From a virus, in IMG/VR virus record IMGVR_UViG_3300029267_002158, positions 1 through 64,000 of that record: a DNA stretch of 64,000 bases; one strand, 5' to 3'. The notes under the pieces are model-generated. The model made no database searches. It saw only the letters and a list, made by a program, of their open reading frames with translations, and was not told the origin of the DNA. Within the stretch, counting starts at the first letter, position 1, and each line of letters begins with the position of its first letter. The position numbers and the translations under genes were made by a program. This document shows, piece by piece, positions 22,290 through 56,248 of the stretch.

Positions 22290-22877
22290 ATGAACAAAGA
22301 GGGATTTACAAAGGTTCCAGTTGGCTTACGATTAAGCGATGGGCGGACCGAGTATAAACACAGAAGATTTAAAGATGTCCTTGCGTTTCTTCATGACAGA
22401 TACGGCGACAAGTATTTAAAGCTAGAACTTGGGCCGGGCAGGAAACAATCTTTGTTGACGCACCCGTCAATAGGATTGAATCCATCGGCTGACCCGGTGG
22501 CTGATATATTCTGGGATCTTAATAATGGCATTCCGCTACCCGGCGATTGTATCGACGAGATCTACTCGAATCAGACATTGGAGCATATCAAGCGAGAGAA
22601 TTTTATCTTCTTGATGAATGAAATGTGGAGCGTAATGAAGGTTGGCGGTGTCATGGAGCACTGTGTACCGGAGTACACCTCCTCCGCCGCAGTCGGGGAC
22701 CCGACGCACTACAATATGTTTTCACGCGATTCTTTCAGATATTTTTGCATCCGCAACGACGGCACGATGTTTACTGACCGATTTTCTGACTACGGGATAA
22801 CGTGCAGATTCATGATGGAGTCTCAGGAGGTCAGGCCGGGACTTGACATCACTGTCAGAATGGTGAAGCTCAAGTGA
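22290..22877 (+). CDS. Class I SAM-dependent methyltransferase
   Basis: LELGPG, DLNNGIPLP...DEIYSNQTLEHI, MKVGG, DPTH. Confidence 0.85.
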   Translation: MNKEGFTKVPVGLRLSDGRTEYKHRRFKDVLAFLHDRYGDKYLKLELGPGRKQSLLTHPSIGLNPSADPVADIFWDLNNGIPLPGDCIDEIYSNQTLEHIKRENFIFLMNEMWSVMKVGGVMEHCVPEYTSSAAVGDPTHYNMFSRDSFRYFCIRNDGTMFTDRFSDYGITCRFMMESQEVRPGLDITVRMVKLK

Positions 22878-23407
22878 GAAAATATTGGAAATGCTTCCTC
22901 TCAACACTAAAGCACAAGTTCTATGTCTTGATTGCTGGCATGTGGCTTGGCGTTCCGCTGTGGCAATTGTTGGCACACGACATTAGCAAGTTTTCCGTTG
23001 CCGAGTTTCCGAGGTATGCAAGATATTATTTTGGGCAAGAAAAGGACAGAGGGGAATGGGCAAAGGCTTGGCACCATCACCAGCGGTTGAATGCACATCA
23101 CCCAGAGTATTGGCTGCTGTCCTGGCGGTTCTGTGGAGGGGTGGGGCAGCCTGTTGCTGATAATGTTGTCGTCCTCCCTATGCCAGAGATGTATGTTCGC
23201 GAGATGGTTGCTGACTGGTTTGCGGCGTCCAAGATTTATACTGGCAGGTGGGACATAGCGACGTGGCTGAACAAGAATGGCCCAAAGATGATAATGCACA
23301 AGGGCACCGTGCGGCTCGTTGGGGATATTATGGTCGAGATGGGATACTACCTTACTGATAACTGCTCCTGGTCATGGATGGCGGGCGAAAGGTTTTTGAG
23401 AAAATGA
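22874..23407 (+). CDS. DUF5662-like HD-type metal-binding protein
   Basis: HK..V, HDISKF..EF, AWHHH...NAHHPEYW, MP..Y..EMVADW. Confidence 0.75.
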   Translation: MRKYWKCFLSTLKHKFYVLIAGMWLGVPLWQLLAHDISKFSVAEFPRYARYYFGQEKDRGEWAKAWHHHQRLNAHHPEYWLLSWRFCGGVGQPVADNVVVLPMPEMYVREMVADWFAASKIYTGRWDIATWLNKNGPKMIMHKGTVRLVGDIMVEMGYYLTDNCSWSWMAGERFLRK

Positions 23408-24003
23408 ATTATCTTATCGAGGAGTTGGTAAGAAGGCAAAACCTTACGGTGAGGGGGCAAGACTGGGATACAAACCACGAGCGTCTTACAAAAAATGTGG
23501 TTGATCAATTTGCTCCTCTTATTCCAAAGGGGAAGGTAGTTGATGTTGGTTGCGGGAAAGGACTTGCGAGGAAGCACTGGGTGCGTCACGGCTTTGATTG
23601 GGTTGGTGTGACAATTGGCCCTGACTGGGAGTATATGAAGCACAAAGAGTGCGTGCGGGGTGATATGCACATCCTGTCAAGAATCGTTGACGCTGATGTT
23701 GTATACGCAAGGCATGTGCTAGAACATTCACCAATGCCGGTTGTGGCTCTGCGTCGGTGGATGGATATATCGACGCGCATTATTGTCGTTGTTCCAAAAC
23801 CAACACCTCGCGCCATAGATGACACAGCGCACTTAAGCGTGTTGCCCAGAGTAAACTGGATTAAGTATTTCAACTTTCTTGGGTTGAGAATTGCGCTACA
23901 ATCAGAAGTGGAGTACAGTAACCCAGCGCCGTGGCCGCAAACCGGTGGCGAGTTCAGATTTCTTCTATCACACAATCAAAAAAAGCTATTTTGCAGGAGG
24001 TAA
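23404..24003 (+). CDS. Class I SAM-dependent methyltransferase
   Basis: VVDVGCGKG, GDMH, YARHVLEHSPMP; ATGA overlap. Confidence 0.85.
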   Translation: MNYLIEELVRRQNLTVRGQDWDTNHERLTKNVVDQFAPLIPKGKVVDVGCGKGLARKHWVRHGFDWVGVTIGPDWEYMKHKECVRGDMHILSRIVDADVVYARHVLEHSPMPVVALRRWMDISTRIIVVVPKPTPRAIDDTAHLSVLPRVNWIKYFNFLGLRIALQSEVEYSNPAPWPQTGGEFRFLLSHNQKKLFCRR

Positions 24004-24006
24004 GGG

Positions 24007-24795
24007 GTGAGGCCCATTTTCTTTATTGGAAACAAGCGATCAGGCACGTCGCACGTGGTAAGACTACTCAATGCTCATCCGAATGTCCATGTGTGTTACG
24101 AGCAAGACTTAGCATGGATTCTATATCAGTGCGAAAAGGGATGGTGGCCTGATTTGGTGGGGTATAAATATGACACGCCTTATGGAATGTGGGGCGCTTT
24201 GTGGCGATGCAAGAACTATAATCACTTTGGAGGAATAAATATTGCGAATGACAAGCACGAAGCCATCAGGAATGCTTACTTTAAAGCATCCCTGGCATTG
24301 ATGGAGGATTCTCCTTCTGGCAAGTTTCGTGACGCAATAAAGTGGATAGGCGATAAAAAGCCTGTCCAAAACGCAGATCCGGAGGTATTCGATTTCATAC
24401 GAAGGCATTTCCCCGATGCAAAGTTTATACATCTCATTCGCCATGTGGCAGACTTCGCTGAGAGCACCAATTCCAGGATTGCGTGCTACAAGCACGGTCC
24501 AAAATTCTGGTATTATGAAAGAGATCACCTATTCAGAATGTGGGCAATAATTGAGGGGTGGGTCCTGAGAGACAAGGAGCAAGCGCCGGATTGCATAATT
24601 GATGTACGATACGAGGATTTGTGCAGCTCTCCCGTCGAGGAAATGGAAAGGGTGTTCAGTTTTCTCGATCTGGAGATGGATTCGCGCGTTGAAAGGATAG
24701 TCAGCGAGACCACTACCCCCATCCCCAAGTACGATAGATCTGTTTCTGATTTCGGATCTGCGAGAGAGATAATGAGGGCGTACTCCTATGCGTAA
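24007..24795 (+). CDS. PAPS-dependent sulfotransferase
   Basis: FFIGNKRSGTS (5'-PSB loop), GDKKP, FPDAKFIHLIR, VRYEDL. Confidence 0.9.
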   Translation: MRPIFFIGNKRSGTSHVVRLLNAHPNVHVCYEQDLAWILYQCEKGWWPDLVGYKYDTPYGMWGALWRCKNYNHFGGINIANDKHEAIRNAYFKASLALMEDSPSGKFRDAIKWIGDKKPVQNADPEVFDFIRRHFPDAKFIHLIRHVADFAESTNSRIACYKHGPKFWYYERDHLFRMWAIIEGWVLRDKEQAPDCIIDVRYEDLCSSPVEEMERVFSFLDLEMDSRVERIVSETTTPIPKYDRSVSDFGSAREIMRAYSYA

Positions 24796-25297
24796 GGCGT
24801 CATTTTTATTTTGCAGGGTCTTGTTTACTAAATTCGGCGTTGACCCGGCGGCGGGCAGGGCAATTGATGTTGGCGGGGCGGACAGGATTGTATATCTCAA
24901 AAAGAAGATGCCAAACCCCCTACTGGAGTGCAGTCCAGATCTGGACTTCTTCGACAATGGATTTCTTGGTTCTGATAATCGCGATTTCCTGAATGAGGAT
25001 GACGTTGCTCCCCTGGAGGGCAAATACAACATTGTTTACAGCTTCGACACCTTGGAGCACGTCAAGGACCCGTGGTTGTTTTACAAAAACATGGTTCGTG
25101 TTTCAAAGAAGGGAGGGCATATATTTATAGCAGCGCCATTCAGGCGGCCTTACCATCCGTCCCCTGGTGATTATTGGAGGTTTACGCCGGAGGGGCTTAA
25201 GTTGCTTTTCGAGAAGATGGACAACGTCAAGGTTCTGGCCGCTGAGTGGGACATTGATCTTGTCGGTTCCGTTTTATTAGTCAGGAGGACAGAATGA
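24788..25297 (+). CDS. Class I SAM-dependent methyltransferase
   Basis: AIDVGG, DTLEHVKDPW, KKGG, YHPSPGDYWRFTPEGL. Confidence 0.85.
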   Translation: MRKASFLFCRVLFTKFGVDPAAGRAIDVGGADRIVYLKKKMPNPLLECSPDLDFFDNGFLGSDNRDFLNEDDVAPLEGKYNIVYSFDTLEHVKDPWLFYKNMVRVSKKGGHIFIAAPFRRPYHPSPGDYWRFTPEGLKLLFEKMDNVKVLAAEWDIDLVGSVLLVRRTE

Positions 25298-26334
25298 AAA
25301 GAAATATCTTACTGGTGATCATTGATTGCTTGCGTTTCGACAAAGTCAATGAGGATCTCATGCCGTTTACACGGCGATGGGGAATGGAGAATGTGTGGTT
25401 TAGCAATCACCGGGTTGTTAGCCATTGCACCGACCCATCTATCACAATGATGCTAAGCGGCGTTCATCCTGATGTAATTGGATTGTACTCAATGATGTAC
25501 GAACACCGAGATTACACTATTCCCAATGACATTAAAATGATCTCGGAGGTCGCTCGTGGGTATGGATACTTCACCGGCCTGGTATCTAACCTTGCGAGGT
25601 GGTATAGGCGGGGGCAGAATGTGTACCTTGATTGTCGCGGGTGGGCCGGAAGCAAAATCTTTGACGAATCTGTGCGGCTTGTCAAGAGTTTCAATCTTCC
25701 ATGGTTCCTCATTGTTCACGACGATTCCTGTCACCGTGAATACGAACGCGGCAGCTATGATAACGCTTGCCGCGCAGTGGATACCTATATCAAAAAGCTG
25801 CTCGATTCTGTTGACCAAGAAAACACAGACATCATTATCACGGCGGACCATGGCGAGGGACTGGGGCAGGAGAGCGTGACAGGGAGAAAGATTATCCAGC
25901 ACGGATTTGGCCTCGATCCGTTTCTCACACACGTCCCTTTGCTGGTGAAGAGGGGGGCGGGCGATATGTTTCCCAAGAAATGTGTAATAGACCAGGTGAC
26001 GGACAATATGTATATTTACCAGGCGCTTAGATATAGAATTTGCGGCGCGAATGCCATTCCGGCGTTTGGCAGGCCGGTGTTTCAGGCTGGCGATACCCCG
26101 CCAAACATTCGACATAGGGGCATTGTCCTCCCCGACCAGAAACAGTTCATTATCGAATCGCAGGGCGGAAAGGTGAATGGAAGGTATTATATAGGCCAAT
26201 TCACAGAAGGGGAAAAGCGCAGCGCCGAGGAGATGTTGGCCGGCCACTGTTCCAGACATGGCATTGATTACTGGGCGGAGAGTATGGAGCCGGAGGCGGA
26301 ATCAAGGCTAAGGGGGTTAGGATACTTTGGATAG
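25294..26334 (+). CDS. Alkaline-phosphatase/sulfatase-superfamily enzyme (Thr at nucleophile position)
   Basis: NILLVIIDCLRFD, CTDPS..MLSG.HP, IIITADHGE, HG, HVPL, RLRGLGY. Confidence 0.85.
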   Translation: MKRNILLVIIDCLRFDKVNEDLMPFTRRWGMENVWFSNHRVVSHCTDPSITMMLSGVHPDVIGLYSMMYEHRDYTIPNDIKMISEVARGYGYFTGLVSNLARWYRRGQNVYLDCRGWAGSKIFDESVRLVKSFNLPWFLIVHDDSCHREYERGSYDNACRAVDTYIKKLLDSVDQENTDIIITADHGEGLGQESVTGRKIIQHGFGLDPFLTHVPLLVKRGAGDMFPKKCVIDQVTDNMYIYQALRYRICGANAIPAFGRPVFQAGDTPPNIRHRGIVLPDQKQFIIESQGGKVNGRYYIGQFTEGEKRSAEEMLAGHCSRHGIDYWAESMEPEAESRLRGLGYFG

Positions 26335-26448
26335 GATAAACGAGGACAGATTTAGTCTAATTCAAAGCAAGGAACTTGGTTACTGGAAGAACACGCATTG
26401 CGATCCTAGGGGCCGTGGTATCATTACGACAGAAGGTTCATCAGTCAC

Positions 26449-26937
26449 ATGAGGAGGTTTGATACTGTTGTTGATGTCGGGAGTGGCCCTGTCCCGTATT
26501 TCTGCAATCACAACGTAAGGTTCGGGCGAGCGGTTGCCGTAGATCCCCTTGCTGTACCTTATTCCAAGATAGACAAATACCAACCATTCGTCAGCAAGTG
26601 CGAGTACTCGACGGCGAGCGGAACCGTCGAGTTATTAAGCGGCTTTGCTGATGCTGTGTTTTGCATGAATACATTGGACCACTGCCAAGATCCAGCGTTT
26701 GTTCTGGGTGAGCTGAAGAGGATTGCAAGGCCAGTAAGTAAATTGTTTTTTCAGTGCGATGTTGGCAAGAAGCCAGACCACCTGCACCCGCACACCATTG
26801 ATGCAGACTGGGTATCAAGTGTGCTTTTGAAATGGTTTTCTCCTATTGTGAATTATACCTCAAAGAGTTGGAAATTTGATTGCGATGTCTTATGGTTTGT
26901 GGGAGATATGAAAAATGAAAATAGTCCACGTCAGTAA
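26449..26937 (+). CDS. Class I SAM-dependent methyltransferase (possibly split from 26327..26452)
   Basis: VVDVGSGP, AVDPL, VFCMNTLDH..DP. Confidence 0.8.
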   Translation: MRRFDTVVDVGSGPVPYFCNHNVRFGRAVAVDPLAVPYSKIDKYQPFVSKCEYSTASGTVELLSGFADAVFCMNTLDHCQDPAFVLGELKRIARPVSKLFFQCDVGKKPDHLHPHTIDADWVSSVLLKWFSPIVNYTSKSWKFDCDVLWFVGDMKNENSPRQ

Positions 26938-27865
26938 ACGAAAGAAGCATGACAAAGACGGTTTGCACCTTGGTGGAGTCGAGGCGTTTTCAAGCTACCT
27001 GAAGGAGGTGATTCCTGAAATGGAATTGTTCTCCTGGCTCGATTTCAATGATTGGCTCGCGACCCCGGACATACCAGACTTCGAGAGGGCCTCGATGCTA
27101 AACACTTACCTCTTGGAAGTTGGCGGGATTGACGAAGAAACAATTGTCATAGTCGATGGGTACTGGGGGCTCGGCCTAGAGGGGAAGGTAGCGCGATTAA
27201 TATCCGTTTGTCACGGCAGCTTGTATGGCCGGTTTATTCAGTCCCAGATTTATCCTTGGGGCGGAGTGGTCGATATGGAAGAGGTTGAGGCTCAGCTATA
27301 CATGTTTAAAAACTCAGAGGTAGTAAGTGTATCGTCCGAGTCTCATTTAGAGTTGCTCAAAGCCGGCGTACCAGGGTCAACTGTTATTCGTCACGGCGTA
27401 CCGCTAGACAAGTTCATGCCGTATCAAAAGAAGAGAGATGTGTGGATGCACGCTGCAACATCAGCGCGCAAGGGCGCGGATCTCTTGCATCATATTGCAG
27501 CCGAGGTCGGAGAGGGGTTCAGCATCGAAGCCATGAATGAGCGCAGTGGCATACCAAAGAAAAAGTCTATGAGACTGTCCCAAGCCAAGGCTCTTATTGC
27601 TCCTACAAGGCACGAGGGAAATTCCTATTTGCTCCTCGAAGCACTTGCTAGCGGAACACCGTTGCTGACATATCAAACGGGTCTCGCTTGTGAGATGGAT
27701 GAGAGATGTGGTATTATCACAGACGATTTATCTCCAGCGAACTTTGGGAGGCATATCAGGCATTGGGATGAATACACCTTTGCCCCACGAGAATGGGCAG
27801 AAGAGAATTTCTGTTTTGCAGATTTCGAGAGAGATTGGAGAGATTACCTTGACTATCCTGATTGA
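26915..27865 (+). CDS. Glycosyltransferase, GT-B (GT4-like)
   Basis: GGVE, VI.HGV, RKG, HEGNSYLLLEALASGTP. Confidence 0.85.
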   Translation: MKIVHVSKRKKHDKDGLHLGGVEAFSSYLKEVIPEMELFSWLDFNDWLATPDIPDFERASMLNTYLLEVGGIDEETIVIVDGYWGLGLEGKVARLISVCHGSLYGRFIQSQIYPWGGVVDMEEVEAQLYMFKNSEVVSVSSESHLELLKAGVPGSTVIRHGVPLDKFMPYQKKRDVWMHAATSARKGADLLHHIAAEVGEGFSIEAMNERSGIPKKKSMRLSQAKALIAPTRHEGNSYLLLEALASGTPLLTYQTGLACEMDERCGIITDDLSPANFGRHIRHWDEYTFAPREWAEENFCFADFERDWRDYLDYPD

Positions 27866-30800
27866 GATACCAACAAAGGGCAGGGATTCAACACTGGGTC
27901 GTTGCCTTGCGGCCCTGTACAATCAGTCGTGTCAGGGCTTCGATGTGCTAATTCTGAATGATGGCTACCATCCCGTCGGTGATACAAAGACAACGGAGTT
28001 TATCATTTCAGAGATGGCGAGGCACCATGACATCTCTGTCCGGGATGGCTCACGCATCAGTCAAGCGCACAATCACAACATGCCGCTTTATGATCGTGAG
28101 CTTCTGGATTACGAGTACATTCTTCGCCTCGACGACGACATTCTACTTGATCGTACAGCACTGGCAAGGATGGTTGCTTTTATGGACAAGCACCCCAATG
28201 TCGGCGCTGTCTCCGGTTTGTGGTTTGAGATGGAGTGGAAGGACAAAGAGTGGCATGACCGCGCAGAGATGAGCTTTAGCCCTGAAACTAAGCAAGAGAC
28301 AAGCGGCGACGTCGGGGCTGTCAACTCTAATTGGCAGCAGAGGATGTACCATCCGTCCAACGAGCCACAGGCTGTAAACCACCTTTATGGGCCGTGCATG
28401 TATCGAGCCGGCGCAATGCGTCATGCGGGCGGCTGGCCGGAGGTATACAGCAAGGGGGTGGCTCACGGCGAGGAAACAGATGGTACCTTTCGTCTGTGTA
28501 TAGACGGGTTCGATCTTTTTGTGCTACCTGACGTCACTGGGCAACATCTAAAGACCAGCGGTGGTATTAGGGCCGACAAGGACGTTGGAAAGAAGCAGTT
28601 TACCGACTGTATAAAATGGAGAAACAGGCTTCCGCTGATAGAGGGTATAAATTTCAACCCCACTGTCGCAGTGTGGTGCCAGCATTCATTTGGAGTCGGC
28701 GGTGCCCAGAGACAGTTTTATCAAACAGTTAGCTTGTTGCAATCCAAGTCTGGGCTCAGAGTAGATCCCGTCTTTACGTCCCAGTATATGCAGCCCGAAG
28801 AGTGCGAAGAAGTCTTCGGCGTCTCCTACGAGGAGCGCGATCCACTGGATGAATACGATGTGTGCATTGTCATGGGGCATGAGCCATTTGTGCCCGTGAA
28901 AGCGAAGCACTACATTTTGTACGTCTTCTTTCCCGAACCAAAGGCGGTGTTGCAAAGTAATTTTGACAGCAGAATAAGAGCGATAGTGGGCAACAGCAAG
29001 TATACCGCTCAATGGATAGAGAACAGGTGGCGTTACAAAGCAAGTCACATATATCCCGCAGTGGACATGATAGGCGTGGACGATGCAGAGAAAGATGACC
29101 TTATCCTCTGTGTCAGCCGAGGAGATCCGCACAAAGCGCCTATGTGGCTGATGGAGAGATTCAAGGAAATTGATCTCCCTGGCTGGGAATTTCATCTAGT
29201 TATGGCTACCACTGGCGGCGTCTACACGTCATACGAGGAACAACTGCGGGAATTTGCAAGCAAGAACGACGATATTTTCATTCATGAGAATGTCAGCGAT
29301 GACGACCTGGTTAAAATGTATCGCAGGTCAAAGATTCTCTGGTCCGCAAATGGCATTCACGGTTCTGAGAACCCGCAAAACGCAGAGCATTTTGGGTTGA
29401 CACCAATTGAATCGTGGTCTGCAAAGTGTCTGCCGATTGTGTTTGACTGGGGCGGGCACAAGGAAACGGTGGACAAGTGCTTCAGGTGGAGCGACGCAGA
29501 TTCTCTAAAGAAGCTGACCGTCAAGGTTGCGCAAGAGGGGTACGGAGTGTTTGGTTGTGGCGAGCCAGTGGCTCTTTCTCTGTACAACGAGGGGGATTAT
29601 GCCTGGGAATTTGAGCAACTTATCAGGAGGGTAAACGCCCTGGCTTTGAATGTCGAGAGAGTGGAAGTAACAGAGGTGAAAGCGCCAAAGATTCGTGTTG
29701 GAGCCTGGACGGATTCCCCAAGACTGACAACCGGCTTTGGGACTGTTGCGAGCCAGATTTACAACCTTCTGGGGAAGCAAAATGATATTGAGCTTTGCGT
29801 CTTCGGCATGATGGATTCTATGCACGCTAGGCCAGATGAGGAGATGCCATTCCATTTTATGCCATCGCCATTGTCAGATCCGGAGGGCTGCGGAAACAAA
29901 ACAATGCCCCACTTTTTCAACTGGGCTAGGCCAGACGTAATGTTTTGGCTTTACGATCCGGGAGGTATGAACTCTCAAATATCCACTGCGAAAATCACCG
30001 GCTGGTCAGGGCCGAACGTCGCTTATTTTCCCATTGAGGGATTGCCCGCCCCAAGGCCTGTTGGTCAGCTTGTGTCAAATATTGAATATCCCGTGACCTA
30101 TTGCAAGTCAGCAGCGGAGCACATCAAGCTGCTGACTGGCACAGATGTTGATTTTGCGTATCACGGTATAGATCATGCCCCGTTTGAACCGCTGAATGAT
30201 AGAGACAGGAATCAGATTAGAAATTTAGTTGGGTGGGGCGATAAGTTTGTGATCATTAACGTGGGCACAAACAAGAGGGTAAAGCAACAGCCCTATCTCA
30301 TAGAAATGATGAGGCACATTCTTAAGATGGGGCATGACGACATCTATCTGTATATGCACACCAAGGCATTTGACAATCACGTCCTGCAAGGATGGGTTTT
30401 GGACTATATCAGGGACCTGTACTCTGCGATTGACGGCAGCGATTTAAAGAAGCATATTCTGTTTCCGAGAGATCATGCAAAGTGGGCAGGCCCGCCATAC
30501 AAATTCCATGAAGATATACCGGTGTGGAAAATGACAAAGCCTCCCCTTCCAAGCATGAGGGGTGCAATATTCGAGGCACTGGACTTGATAACAAGGTACC
30601 AGATTGCCGACCTGTACGTTGATACGTCATCCGTAGAGGGATGGGGATTGCCCACTCTTGAATCTGTGGCTTGCGGCACACCAGCAATAACCGTTGACGA
30701 CGGGCATGTCAGGAGCGAGGTTCATTCAAAATATTGCTACACCGTAAGTCCAAAGCACTGGACAACATGGCATACTGGCGCAAGGTTGCAGCTTATTGAT

Positions 30801-45884: not shown

Positions 45885-45887
45885 TTT

Positions 45888-46427
45888 ATGGAAATCATAA
45901 TGGAGCTTGCTGATAAATACGGATGGATCATTGCAACATCCATATTTATTATTTACTCACAGAGGGAAAGAGTTGGGTTTGCGATAGAGAGGTGGTTTGG
46001 CATTAGCATTAAGGCCAAAGAGTCAGAAGATAGGTTTGAAAACGCATTGCGCGAGAAGGCTCTGCAAAACGGGGATTACAGCAAGGAGCTAGTTAGGAAG
46101 CTGTTCGCCAAAGCCGAAGACGAGACCGCTGAGAGGCGGACAAAAGACAAAATGCTATATGACCAAACACGAAGCACGGAGGTCCTTGCGTCGAAGGCCA
46201 TAGAAGTGATGCAGGACTTCGCCAGCGTTGCCAGGAGCCAGGCGGACAGAAACGCATTACAATGGAAAGAGGTGTCAAGTGCAATATCAAAATTAAATAG
46301 CACGATGGAGGGAATTGGATTCCTTCTTGCCCAGGACAGTATCATGAAAAAGCAAGGACTTAACTTTGATGTAGTGAGTCAAGCCATCGGAAAAGGAGCC
46401 CAAGATGGAGATATACATACTGACTGA
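45888..46427 (+). CDS. Single-TM coiled-coil protein (possible holin/lysis component)
   Basis: N-terminal KYGWIIATSIFIIY then helical region. Confidence 0.5.
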   Translation: MEIIMELADKYGWIIATSIFIIYSQRERVGFAIERWFGISIKAKESEDRFENALREKALQNGDYSKELVRKLFAKAEDETAERRTKDKMLYDQTRSTEVLASKAIEVMQDFASVARSQADRNALQWKEVSSAISKLNSTMEGIGFLLAQDSIMKKQGLNFDVVSQAIGKGAQDGDIHTD

Positions 46428-48362: not shown

Positions 48363-49078
48363 TAGATATTTGCATTGTTACATTCAATAGACTTAACTTT
48401 TCAACCGAGTGCATAGAAAAGATTGCTCTCAGGACAAGAACGCCGCACCGTATTATCGTTGTAGACAACGGCTCGACGGACGGAACGGCTGAGTGGATAG
48501 CAGACACAGGGATCATTGATAAGAAAATCTTGCTCAGAGAGAACAAGGGCATACACTACGCCTGGAACCTTGCTTTGCTGCATGTCAAGTCAGATTACTT
48601 TGTCTGCTGTGACAACGACATACTTTGCCCTGATTTGCGACCGGTTGATTGGCTAGGCCAGCTATGGGACTTGATTGAGAATTATCCTCAATACGCTGCT
48701 ATATCAGCGAGGCCACAAGTGCTTGTTGGGGAACCTGGTGATATGTTCGATGTTGATAAACCAATTGTTGACAGACCGCACGTCGGCGCATCTTTGAGGA
48801 TTATGCGCGCCGACGCTGTCCGTAGGGCTGGTGGGTGGGAGAAGACCACCAGGCCAGAGAGGAATCACGAAGAGAGGTGGATTTGCTCCCGGCTGAAGAA
48901 ATTGAATTTCTCGGTTGGTTACGCAAAAGATATTCGCTGCTGGCATTTGTTCGGAGATAGCAATTGGGGGTACAAGAACGTACCTCACGGCCACAGGGAT
49001 GTTTGGCCGCCGGTCGAAGTGTGGGATTCTGAGAATTTCAGAGCAAAATTCGACCCGATGACATTCGAGGAGATGTGA
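48359..49078 (+). CDS. Glycosyltransferase, GT-A (GT2)
   Basis: ICIVTFNR, VVDNGSTDGT, CDND. Confidence 0.9.
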   Translation: MIDICIVTFNRLNFSTECIEKIALRTRTPHRIIVVDNGSTDGTAEWIADTGIIDKKILLRENKGIHYAWNLALLHVKSDYFVCCDNDILCPDLRPVDWLGQLWDLIENYPQYAAISARPQVLVGEPGDMFDVDKPIVDRPHVGASLRIMRADAVRRAGGWEKTTRPERNHEERWICSRLKKLNFSVGYAKDIRCWHLFGDSNWGYKNVPHGHRDVWPPVEVWDSENFRAKFDPMTFEEM

Positions 49079-49761
49079 TAATGGACATGTCATTTTTGGT
49101 TACAGGGCACGGACGTTCAGGAACAAAGTGGTTATCTAGGTTGCTGAACCAAGATCCAAGTGTTTCTGTGCATCACGAGCCGCTGGCGCAGGCTGACAGG
49201 GCTGCCTATGCCAAGATATATTACGGCAAAATGCGTGCTGACGAGTACCTTATGGCGCGCAAAATTGGAATGACAACCATTTGGAACAGAGCTAGCAGCA
49301 AGGGATTCGCAGAGGTAAACTCATACATGCGCTATTGCGCTAATGAATACAGACTTGTCTTTAATGTCCCTGTGGCCGCCATCGTCAGGGACGGACGATG
49401 TGTTGTAAGATCTATGATGGCGCGTGGGGTGTATCAAAAGCCAGGCTATCCTGAGATACTTGGGCACGGTATGACCCCATTCGAGAAATGCTGCTGGTAT
49501 TGGGCCGATACATATAGGCGTTTATCCAACATAGAGACTTTTCGCCTTGAGGATCTGAATAGTAATTACGATGAGTTTTGCCGATTGTGCTACATGCTCG
49601 ATGTAAAAGTCAGTGCTCGCGTGTGGGAAAAGCACAGACGCACCCTTGTTAATGCAGATGTAGGATTGAGGACACCGCCATACTGGGGGAGGAAGCAGAA
49701 ACTTGCCTTCGACGACGTTGCCGGAGACATATACTATAAATTCTACGGAGGAATATTGTGA
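49075..49761 (+). CDS. PAPS-dependent sulfotransferase
   Basis: FLVTGHGRSGTKWL, HEP, IVRDGR.VVRS, RLEDL. Confidence 0.85.
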   Translation: MIMDMSFLVTGHGRSGTKWLSRLLNQDPSVSVHHEPLAQADRAAYAKIYYGKMRADEYLMARKIGMTTIWNRASSKGFAEVNSYMRYCANEYRLVFNVPVAAIVRDGRCVVRSMMARGVYQKPGYPEILGHGMTPFEKCCWYWADTYRRLSNIETFRLEDLNSNYDEFCRLCYMLDVKVSARVWEKHRRTLVNADVGLRTPPYWGRKQKLAFDDVAGDIYYKFYGGIL

Positions 49762-50003
49762 GTGATAGTGATATGATGGACAAATTACTTCGCGGATGGA
49801 TAAGGACCGCGAGACTTAACATTGCAATGCTAGATGTGGTGAGATCTAATGCAATAGACCTTGTAACCGTGCTGGAAGGCAGAGACATCTTTAAGAATGT
49901 TGATGGATACCCAGGGGAGCTTGACGATCAAGTGAGCGGGATAATCTCAAGTTTAAAAGCTATAGTTCTGGAAACGAGTAAGATCATGGTTAAGCTGAAA
50001 TGA
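49758..50003 (+). CDS. Hypothetical protein
   Basis: GGAGG SD, overlaps both neighbours. Confidence 0.65.
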   Translation: MSDSDMMDKLLRGWIRTARLNIAMLDVVRSNAIDLVTVLEGRDIFKNVDGYPGELDDQVSGIISSLKAIVLETSKIMVKLK

Positions 50004-50917
50004 GAATAGCTATAACAGATACGAACCAGGGAAAATTCACAAGAGATATGATGAGGCATTGGCAGTCGCAGGGCCATCACGTAAAACTCTTTGGCACTTG
50101 CCGGCGACCGCATATGGAGTGGGCCGACGTGCTCTGGTTCGACTGCGTGGATGGCAATCTTGTAGCCGCCACAAAAAAAGCCCCTGAGTTAACCGAAGGC
50201 AAGTTTGTTATTGCCAGGGCTATTGATATTGATGTGTGGGCCTGTCATTTCAATGCTGTTAATTGGTCAAGGGTAAACCATATTATATTCATTGCGAAGC
50301 ACATCAAGGATTACATGCTCGAAGAGAAGAACATGCGCCACAAGGTGCATTGCCCTGTTCATCTCATACCGTGCGGGGTCGATACGAATAGATTTACTAT
50401 GCGAAGAAACCCCGTGAGAAACAATAATGTCGCTGTAGTGATGAGGTTGTGGCACGGGAAGGGCATAGCCTTGCTGTTACAGCTTATTGCCGATATGCCA
50501 GATTATCATTTCCATATTTGTGGGAAATGGGGGATGTCCGGCATAGAGAAAGGGTGGTTCAAACACTATATCGACGACTACCTGAGCCGGCACGACAACT
50601 GGACACATGTCGCTCAGGTCGATGATATGAATGAGTGGCTGGAGGATAAGGCGTACGCCCTCATTCCGTCGATGAAGGAAGCTTTTAGCTATGCAGCCGC
50701 CGAGGCGATGGCTAAGGGGATCAAGCCCGCCATCCATAATTTCTACGGCGCTAGCACTCTGTGGCCGGAGGAGTACAGGTGGTCCACAATCGGACAAGTG
50801 AGAGAAATATTCAGTGAGGAGTACAAGCCTGAAAGATACAGAGGGTATATCGAGGGGGCCTACCCCTTATCAAAAATGATGAACGCATTTGACAAAATTC
50901 TGGAGGAGGCATCTTGA
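50000..50917 (+). CDS. Glycosyltransferase, GT-B (GT4-like)
   Basis: IPCGVD, KG, SMKEAFSYAAAEAMAKGIKP. Confidence 0.85.
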   Translation: MRIAITDTNQGKFTRDMMRHWQSQGHHVKLFGTCRRPHMEWADVLWFDCVDGNLVAATKKAPELTEGKFVIARAIDIDVWACHFNAVNWSRVNHIIFIAKHIKDYMLEEKNMRHKVHCPVHLIPCGVDTNRFTMRRNPVRNNNVAVVMRLWHGKGIALLLQLIADMPDYHFHICGKWGMSGIEKGWFKHYIDDYLSRHDNWTHVAQVDDMNEWLEDKAYALIPSMKEAFSYAAAEAMAKGIKPAIHNFYGASTLWPEEYRWSTIGQVREIFSEEYKPERYRGYIEGAYPLSKMMNAFDKILEEAS

Positions 50918-51723
50918 ATACCATTGTTTTTCCGGTTGTCCGCACAGACTTGATTAAACATGCTCTTGGGTCATTTTGGCAACACAATGACAGAGAGCTG
51001 CACAGGGTTATCGTCATCGATCAGTCCAGAACTGGACTTGACGACCTGGTTAACGCCGGCTTGGCGCACGCCCACCTTCGAGTACACAGGAATCTAGGAT
51101 TTGCCGGCGCATCCAATAGAGGGATACGCCTTGCTGACACCAGATACGTTACCGTGTCAAATGACGACGTGATCTGGTTTGATCCTCGGTGGTGGGAAGG
51201 TGTAATGAAAATATTTAACCGTGATGAGAAAATGGTCGCGGTTAACCCCTCTTGCCCCAAGCTGCCAGGATGGAGCTTCGGAGACAAGGTTGATAGGTAC
51301 ATCGCTGGTGCCGATTCTCCAGAGAAATGCGACTGGGATACGCTGAAGAAGGAGACCCCATTGCGCGGCCTCGTGCACGGAATCTGTATGTGGTGTACGA
51401 CGTTTGATATGAGTAGGCTCAGCGACATTGGCGTCATTGGTGATAGGGGGCACTTGTTCGACGAGCGGTTCTACCCCGGAGGATCTGAGGATTACGATCT
51501 GAACGCCAGGATATTCAGGGCCGGCGGGCTGGCGGTAGGAACTCATGAGAGCTGGTTGTGGCATTATTGGGGGAAATCAAAGGATGAAAAGGGGCATGAT
51601 GGCATGGCTCCGATAGCGGAGAAGCCAGCGTGGAACAGAATGGGTGATTTGTGGGAAAAGGGATTCACTGTGCAAGGTGGGTCCGCCAGAAAGACAGATG
51701 AGGTCTACACAGATTCTCTCTAG
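50914..51723 (+). CDS. Glycosyltransferase, GT-A (GT2)
   Basis: NLGFAGASNRGI, SNDDV, FDERFYPGGSEDYD. Confidence 0.9.
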   Translation: MNTIVFPVVRTDLIKHALGSFWQHNDRELHRVIVIDQSRTGLDDLVNAGLAHAHLRVHRNLGFAGASNRGIRLADTRYVTVSNDDVIWFDPRWWEGVMKIFNRDEKMVAVNPSCPKLPGWSFGDKVDRYIAGADSPEKCDWDTLKKETPLRGLVHGICMWCTTFDMSRLSDIGVIGDRGHLFDERFYPGGSEDYDLNARIFRAGGLAVGTHESWLWHYWGKSKDEKGHDGMAPIAEKPAWNRMGDLWEKGFTVQGGSARKTDEVYTDSL

Positions 51724-51733
51724 GTGGTGAATT

Positions 51734-54700
51734 ATGGCCGAAGTCTTTAACATTACGCATGATGCAGGAAACTTAAACGAATATGATTCGTTGCAAACCG
51801 GTGACGATCTCGCAGCGACAGAGGCAGCAGCACTTGGGAATACGAGCTATGGGCTTGCTGTAACCATAGACTCCACGACAAGCAGATGGGGAGCGATAGG
51901 CTTTGCAGAGCTATCTAATGGCGGCTATCGCTATAGATTCTATGTTGATCCAAACGGCCTGACGATGGACGGCGGCGACGAGTTTCGCCTCTTTGAGGTA
52001 AACGATGGCGGCCAAATTCGCCAATTCGTAGATATGGAATACTCCAGCAGCGCTTACCATATTCGCGCCCAGATAAGAGATGACGGCGGTAGTTGGTATT
52101 CAACAAGTAGCTCAACAACAATCACTGACGCAGAGCACTACATCGAGGTATGTGTCGAGTATGCTGCAACTAGCAGTTCAGAGGACGGTATTCTCACGCT
52201 GTGGATCGACGGTGTCCAGGAAGACACCATCGAGGATCTTGATTTGCACAGCCTTGGCGAACCAGACGGTGCAAGAGTTGGTGCTACAAATGGCCTTGAA
52301 TCCGGCACGTCTGGAACCCTGTATCTCGACGAGATTGTTTTGCGTGATGACGATACCGAGATAGGCCCTGTTACCAGCGCCTCCACCTCAACCTCGACTA
52401 CTACATCAACCACCACTACAACCACCACATCAACGTCAACCTCGACAACCTCCACTAGTACAAGTACCACAACCACATCAACGTCAACATCAACTACAAC
52501 AACTCTTTGGACAGATGTTGACGTTGACCACGAAAGCTGCGCCTTCAACGAGTATGACAGGCTTGTAAACAGCAGCGATCTCGCAATAACACAAGCCGCA
52601 GGGCTCGCTGACACAAACTGCGGTTTGGCAGTAACTATTGATTCAACATCACCAGCGTATGGCGAGATTGATCTCGGTGTCTTATCGGACCATACTTACA
52701 GCTTCAGATTCTATGTTGATCCAAACGGCCTGACGATGGACGGCGGCGACGAGTTCAGGCTTGTTGAGATGGTAGATAGTGTAGTTGGTGTACTCTCCTT
52801 TGTGGACATAGAGTATTCTAGTAGCGCTTACCATATTCGCGCCCAAGCAAGGGACAAAAATGGAGATTGGTCTTCGTCTGGCAATTACACAATAGATGAT
52901 GACGAGCACTGCATAGAAGTTAATGCGCTTACTGACATTGCCGGCGAAACTCATAGCGCAACTTTCACTTTAAGGATAGACGGTGAGCAGAAAACCAGCG
53001 TAGGCTCCCTTGATGTTACTGGCCTGAGCGTACCAGACTCGATCCGTATTGGAGCCACAGCAGGTATTGAATCCGGCACATCAGGTACATTTTATCTTGA
53101 CGAGCTTATAGCCACAGACTCGTCGAGTGAAATCGGGACGAAGCTCGGTCCGTACTTTATGCAGCCCAATGGAGACAGAACGTCCAACTGGTCAGCCGGC
53201 GGCTCCGGCTCAGGGCACTGGGATAGAGTTGCAAAAGACAGGCAAGCCAGCGATGTGCCTGACAAAACGAGCTATATCTACACAAGCAGCGAATCGCCTA
53301 TAATAGACAGTTTCACTATGACCAACGTTGACATCGCGGGCGGCAATGCTGAAGATATAGCGGTGTGGTTATATTGCGAGGTTGAGAACGTAGGAAGCTC
53401 AGCGTATGTCGATGTAAGTCTCTGGAATAGCGACGAGACAGCCCAATATGGTGCTACAAAACAGATAACTCCAATTTCTACCCCGTCATGGCCGTCGGTA
53501 AAATTCGAGAATAGAAATCTCTCGCAAGCACAAATGAACGATCTTGTGGTGAGAATTTCATACGTCAACGATCCTGATCCACCAGAGGAAATAAAGGTCT
53601 ATGCGCTTTACGCTGAGGTAACTAGACTCTCTGGCACTACCTCGACAAGCACAAGTACTACAAGTACGACGTCCACCTCGACCTCCACAACCTCGACATC
53701 GACATCGACAAGTACTACGTCAACAAGTACTTCAAGCACAACCTCGACATCGACATCGACATCGACATCGACTACTTCAACAAGCACCAGTACTAGCACC
53801 AGTACCAGCACGACCTCGACCTCGACAAGTACAACTTCCACAAGTACATCGACAACCTCAACCACCTCCTCTACTTCAACGGGTACGACTACGACGCTTG
53901 CTTGCGACACGTGGTCGTGTGACGCGGTTGTTGGAGATCATGGATCGAGCGATAACATTGGTGATATGCTCATCTTGCAACGTGTCCGTGCCCTTGCCAG
54001 CGGACACGTGACTAGCGTAAGGTTCTACGCCAATTCTGTTACAATGGACGCGAACGTTCACGCAGCTTTGTACACAGATAATAGTGGCCTGCCAGACAGC
54101 AGACTAGCTAACGGCGAGGCGACTGTTACCTCGACCGGTCACTTTAGTGTTAACTTGACGGTTAATCCTGCCGTTTCCGCAGGCAGCTATTACTGGATCG
54201 CAATTTTCTACCTGCAAGGCACGGGACTTACTGTCACTGTTGATGACACAGCGCCATACGTGGCCGACGAAGCAAGGTATACTGATTATGTTAGTGTGTC
54301 ATATCCGTTCCCGTCAAAGATCACAGAGAGTTACGAGGCAAGCGAGTGTGTATATACCTGCATGTACATTGCTTGCAGCGCGACAACTACTTCCACCTCG
54401 ACCACGACAAGCACCACTACTTCCACCTCGACCACCAGTACCAGTACCAGTACGACCTCAACCAGTACCAGTACCTCTACCTCGACAACCTTAACAAGTA
54501 CATCGACTAGTACAACATCGACTAGTACCAGTACCTCTACAACATCGACAAGTACAAGTACCTCGACCTCTACCTCGACAACCTTAACAAGTACAAGCAC
54601 ATCTACCTCCACCTCCACCTCCACCACGACGACTGCGACCTCCACTTCTACCTCGACAACAACACTGGCCTTCTCTACTTACAGGAAGCGCAAGCCTGTC

Positions 54701-56248
54701 AAGCCGCATATCGAGATCAAGACTGGCGAGAGAGTATATCGGCCAAAGGCGACCGCTATGAAATGGGGAGCGGTGTACTCTCCGTCCGGCAGCGGCTTTG
54801 GCTATTTGTCCTTCACCGTGCTTCGTGACGCGGGAAAAGACTACCCGGATATTGGGTACGGAATGGAAGTTACATTAAGAAAAGGACTGACGAAGATCCT
54901 GTTTCACGGCGTCATCACAAAGATTCAAGAAGAGAGAGGTGACGCCAGCAAAATCTCTGTTGGCTGTACGGGGTGGAAGGTGGTGTTTGAAAACGACCGA
55001 CTTAACAGAATATATACTGATTCAAGAACGGAAAGCGGGGCGTGGATCGTGGATGAGGAGCCAAGTGGATTGTTTCAGCCAAGCAAGTTCGACATCCGCC
55101 TTGGTTCAGAGATAGAGGTGCGCCCAAGGGAGCGGATCGACTTCACCGCCGATGAATATAGCGAGGCGGTGTACTCTATGCCTAGTGGGCAAAATGTAAA
55201 ATGGGTCGAGTTCTCTTGGGCGACTGTATTCCCTAGCGGGTACCCATTCAAATTCGAGATCCTGAGCAATGACAATACTTTGTTGACAACCACGACAACC
55301 GGCGAGCAATCCGGCAGTTCCAGGGCCGTTATCTCTGGTGACGCAACCACTGTGTCAATCCGCCTTACCATCACAGACGCGGGAGAGAGCACGGCTGCGG
55401 ATGATGCTGCATATGCCAAGATCACGGCTGTCTCAATATCAGCCAAGGACACGTACCCTGTTGATATGGCGGTGGTGTTAAAGGACATTGTGGACTATCT
55501 TTATGACGCAGGGCACGGAATTTCTAACGATAAGACTAAGATAGAATCAACAAACCGCACCTTACATCCAGCATATTTCCTCTCTGACCAAACACCAAGG
55601 GAGATTCTGGAATGGTGCGCCAACAGAGGGAATAGTAACGGCAAGCCTGTGTGTTGGGGAATGGAGCTGAATGATAGGAGGAGGGTCTTTCTAAAAGAGC
55701 AAGACCTGGAGACCGTTGGTTATTACTTGCCACACGACGAGGCAAAAACAAACGTGACTGGCGACGCACAAAACTCTCATCAAAAACTGTATGCCACGTA
55801 CAAGGGGATTGACGGAGAGGAATATCGCACAGCCGATACCACTGATCAGGATACCATAGACGATATGAATGGTTATTTCAGAAGGGACGTGATGGGACTT
55901 GACGGGGAAATGAGTAGTGGCCTGGCGAACTTCGCAGTGGCCTTGAATCTGTCAGAAAACAAGAAGCCCACGACCTCATCTAGTTGGGAGGTCAAGGGCT
56001 CCATTCTTAGCAACACGGGCAAGCGCGTCCCTTTTGACGAGATCCTGCCTGGCGTGATGGTAACAGATCGGAATTTCAAGTCCCGTGAAGCGATCTTGCA
56101 AGGAGGAGATGACTTTAGAGACAGGGCCACCACATTCTTTCTTATAGGAACGGAGATTGATTATGACTCAGGTGTCTGTCAGTTGATAAACGGGAGGGAC
56201 GACAAGACCCTAAGTCGATATATGATGGCTATTGCAGATATGCCCTAG
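51734..56248 (+). CDS. Tail protein: lectin-like beta domains separated by three Ser/Thr tracts, C-terminal baseplate hub-like region
   Basis: Duplicated LamG-like domain (H.IEV...LWIDG...YLDE), DUF4082-like domain, ~227 residues of S/T tracts, C-terminal GFGYLSF...LFHGVI...CTGW. Confidence 0.75.
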   Translation: MAEVFNITHDAGNLNEYDSLQTGDDLAATEAAALGNTSYGLAVTIDSTTSRWGAIGFAELSNGGYRYRFYVDPNGLTMDGGDEFRLFEVNDGGQIRQFVDMEYSSSAYHIRAQIRDDGGSWYSTSSSTTITDAEHYIEVCVEYAATSSSEDGILTLWIDGVQEDTIEDLDLHSLGEPDGARVGATNGLESGTSGTLYLDEIVLRDDDTEIGPVTSASTSTSTTTSTTTTTTTSTSTSTTSTSTSTTTTSTSTSTTTTLWTDVDVDHESCAFNEYDRLVNSSDLAITQAAGLADTNCGLAVTIDSTSPAYGEIDLGVLSDHTYSFRFYVDPNGLTMDGGDEFRLVEMVDSVVGVLSFVDIEYSSSAYHIRAQARDKNGDWSSSGNYTIDDDEHCIEVNALTDIAGETHSATFTLRIDGEQKTSVGSLDVTGLSVPDSIRIGATAGIESGTSGTFYLDELIATDSSSEIGTKLGPYFMQPNGDRTSNWSAGGSGSGHWDRVAKDRQASDVPDKTSYIYTSSESPIIDSFTMTNVDIAGGNAEDIAVWLYCEVENVGSSAYVDVSLWNSDETAQYGATKQITPISTPSWPSVKFENRNLSQAQMNDLVVRISYVNDPDPPEEIKVYALYAEVTRLSGTTSTSTSTTSTTSTSTSTTSTSTSTSTTSTSTSSTTSTSTSTSTSTTSTSTSTSTSTSTTSTSTSTTSTSTSTTSTTSSTSTGTTTTLACDTWSCDAVVGDHGSSDNIGDMLILQRVRALASGHVTSVRFYANSVTMDANVHAALYTDNSGLPDSRLANGEATVTSTGHFSVNLTVNPAVSAGSYYWIAIFYLQGTGLTVTVDDTAPYVADEARYTDYVSVSYPFPSKITESYEASECVYTCMYIACSATTTSTSTTTSTTTSTSTTSTSTSTTSTSTSTSTSTTLTSTSTSTTSTSTSTSTTSTSTSTSTSTSTTLTSTSTSTSTSTSTTTTATSTSTSTTTLAFSTYRKRKPVKPHIEIKTGERVYRPKATAMKWGAVYSPSGSGFGYLSFTVLRDAGKDYPDIGYGMEVTLRKGLTKILFHGVITKIQEERGDASKISVGCTGWKVVFENDRLNRIYTDSRTESGAWIVDEEPSGLFQPSKFDIRLGSEIEVRPRERIDFTADEYSEAVYSMPSGQNVKWVEFSWATVFPSGYPFKFEILSNDNTLLTTTTTGEQSGSSRAVISGDATTVSIRLTITDAGESTAADDAAYAKITAVSISAKDTYPVDMAVVLKDIVDYLYDAGHGISNDKTKIESTNRTLHPAYFLSDQTPREILEWCANRGNSNGKPVCWGMELNDRRRVFLKEQDLETVGYYLPHDEAKTNVTGDAQNSHQKLYATYKGIDGEEYRTADTTDQDTIDDMNGYFRRDVMGLDGEMSSGLANFAVALNLSENKKPTTSSSWEVKGSILSNTGKRVPFDEILPGVMVTDRNFKSREAILQGGDDFRDRATTFFLIGTEIDYDSGVCQLINGRDDKTLSRYMMAIADMP
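52373..52504 (+). repeat. Ser/Thr low-complexity tract 1 (44 codons)
   Basis: ACN/TCN/AGY codon run. Confidence 0.95.
53636..53896 (+). repeat. Ser/Thr low-complexity tract 2 (87 codons)
   Basis: ACN/TCN/AGY codon run. Confidence 0.95.
54377..54664 (+). repeat. Ser/Thr low-complexity tract 3 (96 codons)
   Basis: ACN/TCN/AGY codon run. Confidence 0.95.

Follow-up and report, generated by a model that had tools for sequence, protein, structure and literature searches.

Comparative evidence for a mobile glycosyltransferase cassette linked to Ser/Thr-tract virion proteins of uncultured phages, and for a separate lineage-conserved enzyme block

We analyzed a 64,000-nucleotide stretch of DNA from an uncultured marine phage (hereafter, the window; positions 1 to 64,000 of IMG/VR record IMGVR_UViG_3300029267_002158) that carries two blocks of predicted glycosyltransferase (GT), sulfotransferase, and methyltransferase (MT) genes among its morphogenesis genes: block 1 (22290-30962) and block 2 (46405-51723). 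Block 2 is followed by a gene encoding a 1504-amino-acid (aa) tail protein with long tracts of Ser and Thr (S/T tracts). Comparison with other phages makes it likely that block 2 is a glycosylation cassette linked to such tracts. It also seems probable to us that two separate things are present: block 2 and the tail gene would form a unit of substrate and enzymes, and block 1 would be a module conserved in the phage lineage with an acceptor other than the tracts. The window is the first 64 kb of one 73,811-bp contig, whose ~145 starting bases are repeated at the contig end; therefore, the contig is a complete phage genome with a terminal repeat.

The morphogenesis arm occupies 13.5 to 56.2 kb on the + strand according to Pfam and PHROG maps. 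Its genes encode, in order, the large terminase (TerL), a 1598-aa Mu-type portal fusion, block 1, a Mu-like protease, a decoration protein, the major capsid protein (MCP), neck and tail proteins, a 1630-aa tape measure protein (TMP; 38223-43115), three tail open reading frames (ORFs), block 2, and the 1504-aa protein. The features of block 2 and the tail gene are as follows.

46405-47649, + strand: GT414, the lead enzyme, a predicted GT4-type retaining GT-B glycosyltransferase (predicted structure, motifs)
47646-48362, + strand: predicted GT2 (GT-A) glycosyltransferase, cassette position 2 (Pfam PF00535, 1.3e-18)
48359-49078, + strand: predicted GT2 (GT-A) glycosyltransferase, cassette position 3 (Pfam PF00535, 4e-19)
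49075-49761, + strand: sulfotransferase-like protein, variable slot (Sulfotransfer_3, 26.3 bits, N-terminal PAPS-loop region only)
49758-50003, + strand: 81-aa ORF, variable slot (no Pfam or PHROG match)
50000-50917, + strand: predicted GT4-type GT-B glycosyltransferase, cassette position 4 (Pfam PF00534, 1.8e-8)
50914-51723, + strand: predicted GT2 (GT-A) glycosyltransferase, last cassette gene (Pfam PF00535, 2.5e-8)
51734-56248, + strand: 1504-aa predicted tail-tip protein, with globular domains A, A', B, and C parted by three S/T tracts and followed by a baseplate-hub domain (translation, fold)
52382-52504, + strand: S/T tract 1, aa 217-257, 41 aa, all S/T; proposed O-glycan acceptor
53636-53896, + strand: S/T tract 2, aa 635-721, 87 aa, 86 of them S/T; proposed acceptor
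54383-54664, + strand: S/T tract 3, aa 884-977, 94 aa, 91 of them S/T; proposed acceptor
54665-56245, + strand: predicted baseplate hub domain of the gp27 / Mu gp44 / T5 pb3 type (AlphaFold model, Foldseek)

Neighboring genes of block 2 overlap by 4 nt (the first overlap is 23 nt), and the block ends at 51723, 10 nt upstream of the 1504-aa ORF. A preliminary description of this DNA, made from the letters alone, had noted this spacing and about 227 residues of near-pure S/T with mixed codons; we counted 222 aa in the three tracts, 218 of which are S/T. Their coding DNA mixes ACN, TCN, and AGY, drawing on all four Thr codons and both Ser codon families, and has only short and imperfect periodicities. 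No other such tract was found in any frame of the 73.8-kb genome. The region 46405-56300 occurred without a single difference in public assemblies from four runs of three studies (sediment and seawater metagenomes), which cover the whole tail gene, one contig spanning tracts 2 and 3. Promoter and terminator signals in 38000-57500 were not above those of shuffled sequence.

The same description had called the 1504-aa ORF a tail protein. The model of its last 527 residues (pLDDT 89.4) matched Mu gp44 (1wru), the T5 tail tip (7zhj_b), 9ki1_G, and T4 gp27 (1k28_D) with a Foldseek probability of 1.0. This predicted hub fold of the C-terminus upholds and narrows the assignment: the ORF appears to encode a tail-tip (baseplate hub) protein with an unusual N-terminal extension, in which four globular domains are carried on S/T stalks. 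PDB sequence searches with the hub and the N-terminal half returned nothing useful. Domain A is homologous to one domain of the tract protein of another phage, G001 (IMGVR_UViG_2708742752_000007), and its atlas look-alikes have ConA-like or polysaccharide-lyase-like folds, which we treat as a lead only. Domains A (aa 1-216) and A' (aa 258-470) are paralogous repeats (51734-53140). This duplication probably explains why public unitig assemblies are interrupted at 51955-51964 and 52706-52755.

To examine the linkage between block 2 and S/T tracts, we collected 125 relatives of GT414 by a profile scan of IMG/VR and analyzed the loci of 80 of them, typing the cassette neighbors by tblastn with the window proteins; the tract statistics refer to 79 loci, G001 being excluded. 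S/T tracts of 20 aa or longer were present at 62 of the 79 GT414-anchored loci and, as one marginal tract, at 1 of 43 TerL-anchored control loci (557 kb; p=1.7e-17). When only GT414 loci with full flanks were considered, 30 of 33 carried tracts. Nearly all tracts (136/137) were encoded on the same strand as the GTs, with a median distance of 1 kb upstream of GT414, and after clustering of GT414 at 90, 70, and 50% identity, tracts were found in 51/66, 32/43, and 7/9 clusters, respectively. G017 and G005, two apparent exceptions, have giant tract proteins at the opposite contig end, which would be adjacent to the cassette if these genomes are circularly permuted. Thus, the co-occurrence of GT blocks with S/T-tract proteins that the preliminary description had put forward as a check was borne out for block 2.

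The order GT414, GT2, GT2, variable slot, GT4, GT2 recurred across IMG/VR loci at 30-48% identity. A homolog of the position 2 GT2 directly followed GT414 at 50 of the 80 loci, and homologs of the position 3 GT2, the position 4 GT4, and the last GT2 were found with the order kept at 44, 23, and 18 of the 80, respectively. Since the GT414 loci share no tail-gene homology with the window phage, this conservation of gene order indicates that block 2 is a conserved, mobile cassette of five GTs. In a wider protein collection, we found at least 1265 GT414 homologs (E<=1e-10), unnamed or generically named and all on contigs of 138 kb or less, and none was detected by tblastn (E<=1e-3) in 50,697 GenBank phage records, mycobacteriophages included. 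The MCP of the window phage likewise had no match among GenBank phages.

The tracts linked to these cassettes differ in length and context. In the commonest layout, a Mu gpT-like major head gene (PF10124) is followed by one to three small S/T-tail genes and then by the cassette. The small proteins consist of an N-terminal domain of ~60 aa with a G-D-x-Y...W motif and a C-terminal S/T tail of 45-100 aa; they occur in tandem at L042:8541-9583, L053:8350-9311, and about 40 similar IMG/VR loci, and are candidates for glycosylated head fibers or decoration proteins. Elsewhere, tracts reach ~600 aa (L092), 420 aa (L094), and 300 and 418 aa (L061). Tracts of 300 to more than 600 residues, such as (SSSST)n over ~600 aa, were seen at L092:13680-17279, L094:12200-14956, L061:18515-21295, and L154:391-10827, flanked by globular domains and near GT414 cassettes. 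AGY and TCN Ser codons are mixed in the tracts of every lineage, and the tract sequence varies (TS repeats vs. poly-Ser). The mixed codons and differing sequences point to selection on the hydroxyl-residue composition of the tracts.

We also compared relatives of the tail-tip protein itself. An exhaustive HMMER search gave 142 hub-domain representatives, most of which are stand-alone proteins of ~520 aa. In relatives, the tail gene order from tape measure to hub is kept without the cassette. Five of them have S/T tracts N-terminal to the hub: those of the window, L003, G001/L001, L021, and P0003. P0003 has 2043 aa with tracts, and P0002 is a 61% identical hub of 513 aa; when the hub, P0002, and P0003 were each used as the query of a single-protein IMG/VR scan, no match was obtained. 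The hub protein of G001 has 1717 aa, with three poly-Ser tracts and a Laminin_G_3 domain; the gene of an 812-aa protein with three GT2 stretches and one GT-B domain ends 1 nt upstream of it, and the same block includes a GT414 homolog and a 499-aa ORF of which ~400 aa are poly-Ser. In L021, a GT414 homolog and a GT2 precede the tract-bearing hub. A GT414 homolog is thus present at all three tract-bearing loci with readable context. In contrast, the tract-less relatives L002/G002, L006, L007, L009, and L008 have no GT in the tail module; none of the 55 ORFs scanned in tract-less relatives belonged to a GT, sulfotransferase, or sugar-type MT family. Tail-module GTs were therefore found in 3/3 tract-bearing and 0/5 tract-less hub relatives (Fisher p=0.018). 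The five tract-bearing rows were scattered over a maximum-likelihood hub-domain tree, requiring five changes, and L021 was sister to the tract-less L007, L006, and L004. Together, the scattered positions and the 3/3 vs. 0/5 distribution suggest that the hub extension and its GTs have been gained or lost together.

Several features of these relatives deserve mention in their own right. The 499-aa ORF of G001 (L001:2152-3651) is nearly pure Ser, uses all six Ser codons, lies between a beta-helix protein and the 812-aa multi-GT protein, and looks like a stand-alone mucin-like substrate. Right-handed beta-helix proteins (PF13229) are encoded within the GT blocks of two tract-bearing relatives (L001:775-2151 and L021:3944-5332), whereas the window has none; they are possible partners resembling tailspikes or depolymerases. 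L021 is CAYNKU010000086.1, an 8.7-kb contig with the GT414 homolog, the GT2, a beta-helix protein, and the tract-bearing hub, which was binned to an uncultured Pirellulales metagenome-assembled genome. This bin is the only, weak hint of a Planctomycetota host for this group and is too little to name a host.

The predicted structure of GT414 (pLDDT 94) has two Rossmann domains in a GT-B fold. Its GT-B domain is weak in Pfam and clear in structure comparison, where MshA, BshA, and BA1558 were matched (Foldseek probability 1; VIA Z 16-18 over 330-350 residues). E306 and E314 (E-x7-E, C-terminal domain) and a WLHW-HS motif are invariant in 47 GT414-family sequences. On this model, GT414 is a GT4-type retaining GT-B enzyme. 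PDB sequence searches with GT414 and with the DUF5662 protein of block 1 returned nothing useful. NCBIfam matches were all far below cut-off (SdgA/SdgB, ~18-20 bits against 800), and the weak best ones were exopolysaccharide (EPS) or lipopolysaccharide (LPS) GTs. GtfA was not among the top structural matches listed.

We infer the acceptor role of the tracts, the initiating enzyme, the sulfation and methylation of the glycan, and all functions from this comparative evidence, and propose the following course. Late in infection, in the host cytoplasm, soluble GT414 would most likely add the first sugar to Ser and Thr residues of the hub-protein tracts; we place it first because of its constant position next to tract genes. 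The next four GTs (two GT2, one GT4, and one GT2) would most likely lengthen the glycan chain, and the variable-slot enzymes, sulfotransferase-like here and MTs or sulfotransferases elsewhere, would decorate it. Since the phage encodes no donor synthesis genes, the donors would be UDP- and GDP-sugars, 3'-phosphoadenosine 5'-phosphosulfate (PAPS), and S-adenosylmethionine (SAM) of the host. Each hub subunit would thereby receive three mucin-like stalks, densely O-glycosylated and possibly sulfated. In the hub trimer, these glycosylated stalks would be extended and resistant to proteases and would hold ConA-like, lectin-like, or lyase-like domains away from the tail tip (Laminin_G_3 in G001; domain A, an atlas lead, in the window phage). 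Block 1 may contribute to the same glycan in the window phage, and is not required. By analogy with glycosylated linkers and with the adhesins of serine-rich repeat protein (SRRP) systems, such stalks might serve the reach and stiffness of receptor-binding modules, shielding, or adhesion.

A number of observations weigh against this proposal. Gene neighborhood demonstrates linkage and not chemistry. Seventeen of the 79 GT414 loci had no tract in the available DNA, and many GT414 loci are mutually related and are not independent events. The structural matches of GT414 were generic GT4 enzymes, with no specific peptide O-GT at the top, and no feature of it is particular to peptide O-GTs. The sulfotransferase-like protein of block 2, at 26.3 bits, falls below the Sulfotransfer_3 cut-off of 27. 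In the PDB, the block 1 sulfotransferase (24007-24795) is closest to a protein-tyrosine sulfotransferase (2e-5) and might therefore act on a protein and not on a sugar.

The genes of block 1 are listed below.

22290-22877, + strand: small MT-like protein (PHROG methyltransferase family, 5e-7; weak in Pfam; 54% identical homologs at the same place in G001 and G053)
22874-23407, + strand: DUF5662 protein (Pfam, 5.7e-33; phage-wide family; also in the tract-less G002)
23374-24003, + strand: predicted class I SAM MT (Pfam Methyltransf_23 and Methyltransf_11; homolog in G053)
24007-24795, + strand: predicted PAPS-type sulfotransferase (Sulfotransfer_3, 8e-24)
24788-25297, + strand: predicted class I SAM MT (Pfam; homologs in G001 and in L163 of G054)
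25294-26334, + strand: predicted soluble alkaline phosphatase (AlkP)-superfamily enzyme (Pfam Sulfatase, Phosphodiest, and Metalloenzyme; conserved in G001, G053, and G054)
26449-26937, + strand: predicted class I SAM MT (Pfam Methyltransf_11; homologs in G001 and in L163 of G054)
26915-27865, + strand: GT-B-like glycosyltransferase (weak Pfam GT1; 35-49% identical homologs in G001, G053, and G054)
27690-30962, + strand: predicted three-domain glycosyltransferase, GT-A followed by two GT-B domains (Pfam on protein thirds)

The genes of block 1 overlap or are 3 nt apart, except for one gap of 114 nt, and all genes of both blocks are on the + strand. This layout agrees with the two co-oriented, overlap-coupled blocks amid morphogenesis genes reported in the preliminary description, and its enzyme inventory largely stood. 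Together, the blocks hold 7 GT genes; this number and those of their domains (4 GT-A and 5 GT-B) equal the counts given there. The GT-A domains lie in 27690-30962 (N-terminal part), 47646-48362, 48359-49078, and 50914-51723, and the GT-B domains in 26915-27865 (weak), 27690-30962 (two), 46405-47649, and 50000-50917 (all by Pfam). The two sulfotransferases, four small SAM MTs, and one AlkP-superfamily enzyme were also found, although one sulfotransferase is borderline (Pfam) and one MT is weak, the other three being clear (Pfam and PHROG). The gene of a protein described as HD-like is present, and its HD likeness was not confirmed; Pfam and its family place it in DUF5662, and it is probably outside any glycosylation pathway. 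No block enzyme has a hydrophobic stretch at the transmembrane threshold; only the DUF5662 protein barely reaches it. The earlier statement that PAPS and nucleoside diphosphate (NDP)-sugar synthesis genes are missing from the window extends to the rest of the genome (60 remaining ORFs), where export, lipid-carrier, integrase, and base-hydroxymethylation genes were also not detected.

Block 1 recurs irrespective of tracts. G001, G053, and G054 encode, in the portal-protease interval, an MT-like protein, one to three MTs, an AlkP-type enzyme, a GT-B, and a three-domain GT; full-length homologs of the latter are 35-49% identical to that of the window. A scan for the AlkP-type enzyme found two further relatives. 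G053, the closest relative found (MCP 59%, TerL 45%, and TMP 40% identical), is complete, with a direct terminal repeat (DTR) and 77 kb, and its block 1 enzymes are 45-54% identical to those of the window. It lacks GT414 along with the rest of block 2 and has no S/T tract on its structural strand; its 749-aa hub directly follows a p831 homolog. The tract-less G002 keeps DUF5662 and, at the same place, a homolog of the last GT-B domain only. These distributions suggest that block 1 is inherited with the phage lineage irrespective of tracts and, since G053 and G002 keep its genes without them, that it cannot act on the tracts alone. Its location between portal and protease hints at a head-related acceptor. 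On MCP, decoration, tube-like, and other head proteins of the window phage, we found no S/T-rich end or tag.

Some further observations concern this interval. With its listed start, the three-domain GT gene shares 176 nt with the gene before it, and homologs align only from residue ~56-62; its true start is probably near 27860. Inside the block 1 homolog of G001, a 157-aa ORF (L014:13758-14231) has a Sortase domain (PF04203, 2.5e-12), which is unusual among phage morphogenesis genes. In G002, a protein with an Rv2179c-like 3'-5' exoribonuclease domain (L017:4317-4907) is encoded beside DUF5662 and the single GT-B.

The sulfotransferases and MTs are tied to the cassette indirectly. The protein encoded by 24007-24795 scored 85.5 bits with Sulfotransfer_3 against the cut-off of 27 and has a KRSGTS loop as its PAPS 5'-phosphosulfate loop; that of 49075-49761 has a GRSGTK loop and an RDGR...S motif. 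Among 50 other GT414-bearing records, three (G004, G005, and G017) carry Sulfotransfer_3 genes, each in or beside the cassette. A homolog of 49075-49761 lies just upstream of GT414 in G017 and beside GT414 in L050, and G017 has a homolog of the window MT 24788-25297 inside its cassette. The recurrence of sulfotransferases in the GT blocks of relatives, anticipated in the preliminary description, thus held for the cassettes of three phages and failed for most tract-bearing phages, G001 included (Pfam). The 24007-24795 gene was found only in the window phage among block 1 bearers; no homolog was detected in G001 (Pfam), nor in G053 or the G054 locus L163 (tblastn). These results are indirect indications that sulfo- and methyltransferases decorate the cassette product, and sulfation and methylation of the glycan are plausible.

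The AlkP-type enzyme (25294-26334) lacks the C/S-x-P-x-R sulfatase signature: it reads C-T-D-P-S-I there, without Arg and with a different spacing. On this ground, we class the enzyme only as a member of the AlkP superfamily and not as a formylglycine-dependent sulfatase. Its weak PDB matches were divided among sulfatases, phosphoethanolamine (PEtN) transferases, and nucleotide pyrophosphatases/phosphodiesterases (NPPs). We take its T-D-P-S...L-S-G stretch to resemble the Thr-nucleophile motif of NPP enzymes, as a lead only.

The preliminary description had combined both blocks into one pathway, whose product would be one complex O-glycan, sulfated and methylated, on the tail tracts and possibly the head. 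Both blocks do occur together in the window phage and G001, the two tract-bearing complete genomes of the lineage, and block-1-type MT fragments and a sulfotransferase are found inside GT414 cassettes of other phages. It had also named the loss of GT blocks independently of the tracts as evidence against itself, and block 1 does vary independently of them in G053 and G002, the former keeping the core of block 1 with neither tract nor block 2. Because the head proteins also bear no S/T tag, the single pathway seems unlikely to us. The tracts might instead be modified directly, with or without sugars, by O-sulfation and/or by transfer of a phospho-form through the AlkP-type enzyme, which would make the stalks polyanionic. 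The tyrosine sulfotransferase relationship of 24007-24795 would fit this, as would the phospho-form transferases of the AlkP superfamily, to which the weak PEtN transferase matches belong. We give it a small chance, since the universally linked components are the GTs, sulfotransferases occur in few cassettes and not in G001, and the AlkP-type enzyme persists in the tract-less G053.

Two other explanations place the sugars elsewhere than on the virion. In one, the enzymes act on the host envelope, remodeling O-antigen, EPS, or capsule intermediates on the inner leaflet to prevent superinfection or help release, and the tracts serve as flexible linkers that carry no modification. O-antigen and EPS assembly also typically employs GT2 and GT4 enzymes that lack membrane segments, the weak NCBIfam best matches point the same way, and phage-encoded serotype conversion is established. 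Envelope remodeling leaves unexplained why cassette and tracts are associated on one strand within ~1 kb in very different phages and why they are gained and lost jointly; moreover, the genes are overlap-coupled within late structural operons, and no flippase, polymerase, or Gtr-type gene is present in the genome, nor an integrase gene. We therefore regard it as quite improbable. In the other, the GTs glycosylate phage DNA, and their place among structural genes is incidental. Phage GTs that hypermodify DNA are known and diverse. This explanation is highly improbable, since nine GT domains far exceed the need, the tract association is unexplained, and no hydroxymethylase, TET/5mYOX-type enzyme, or other gene for base modification is present elsewhere in the genome, where a Dam-type methylase is the sole DNA-modifying enzyme seen.

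If block 2 is a glycosylation cassette for the tracts, predicted masses and surfaces of virion proteins would need correction, with consequences for how particles adsorb, how stable they are, and how they adhere to mucus or marine snow. Because a cassette with at least 1265 homologs is tied to virion S/T tracts, self-glycosylation may be common among environmental phages. To our knowledge, experimental proof that phage enzymes glycosylate virions is limited to a few mycobacteriophages. In the literature we covered, which is incomplete, no description was found of this cassette or of sulfotransferases in phage glycosylation. Tentatively, these loci might represent a large unnamed family of phage "mucin cassettes": a mobile five-GT module with exchangeable sulfo- or methyltransferase slots, traveling with S/T-tract genes (20 to more than 600 aa) for head-associated or tail proteins in many uncultured aquatic and sediment phages. 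In the window phage, this might produce sulfated mucin-like tail-tip stalks, the first sulfated glycoprotein of a bacterial virus, which might mimic or bind sulfated polysaccharides of marine particles and host surfaces. The cassettes could also provide compact, soluble, substrate-linked toolkits for O-glycosylation, and possibly O-glycan sulfation, in glyco-engineering. Substrate and enzymes are encoded side by side, which makes the proposal directly testable, and once the cassette tied to tracts is treated apart from the independent head-proximal block, the acceptor of the latter becomes a second question.

In mycobacteriophages Che8, Corndog, and Myrna, phage GTs glycosylate the phages' own capsid and tail proteins (Freeman et al. 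2023, Cell Host Microbe 31:1216; via PMC12619734 and PMC11256854). These systems share modification of the phage's own virion in the cytoplasm, S/T-containing tags, and host donors with what we propose here, and in the window phage, too, GT genes lie within or next to structural genes (Pfam, PHROG). The mycobacteriophage acceptors are short C-terminal tags on capsid and tail-tube subunits, whereas here tracts of 41-94 aa of almost pure S/T lie inside a baseplate hub; five to nine GT domains are accompanied by sulfotransferase and MT genes, and the hosts are uncultured marine or sediment bacteria. GT414 also has no homolog among the mycobacteriophages in the GenBank phage records. Mycobacteriophage virion glycosylation appears to be the nearest demonstrated system, with a shared principle and non-homologous enzymes.

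The nearest mechanistic analog seems to be SRRP glycosylation in Gram-positive bacteria (Fap1, GspB, and SraP; GtfA/B, Gtf3, and dGT1), in which adjacent soluble GTs glycosylate Ser-rich repeats stepwise in the cytoplasm (PMC5207161, PMC6973325). These systems and Staphylococcus SdgA/SdgB resemble block 2 in that a long Ser-rich substrate is encoded beside soluble GT-B and GT-A enzymes, with the same mechanistic logic. They differ in that their substrate is a cell-wall adhesin and not a virion protein; here, no accessory Sec (SecA2/SecY2/Asp) export genes are present among the 60 remaining ORFs, and the SdgA/SdgB matches are far below cut-off. In Mimivirus and its relatives, virus-encoded glycosylation machinery coats the fibrils, and the virus makes its own nucleotide sugars. 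The multi-enzyme glycan pathway for a virion appendage, including sugar-modifying enzymes, is similar; Mimivirus is a eukaryotic virus with its own nucleotide-sugar synthesis, which the window phage lacks, and the proteins are unrelated. Modular glycoside hydrolases and carbohydrate-binding module (CBM) proteins have O-glycosylated S/T/P linkers, whose glycans extend the linkers and protect them from proteases. There as here, globular carbohydrate-active or carbohydrate-binding modules are strung on hydroxyl-rich linkers, but those linkers are glycosylated by the general cell machinery during secretion, whereas in the phages a dedicated cassette appears to travel with its substrate.

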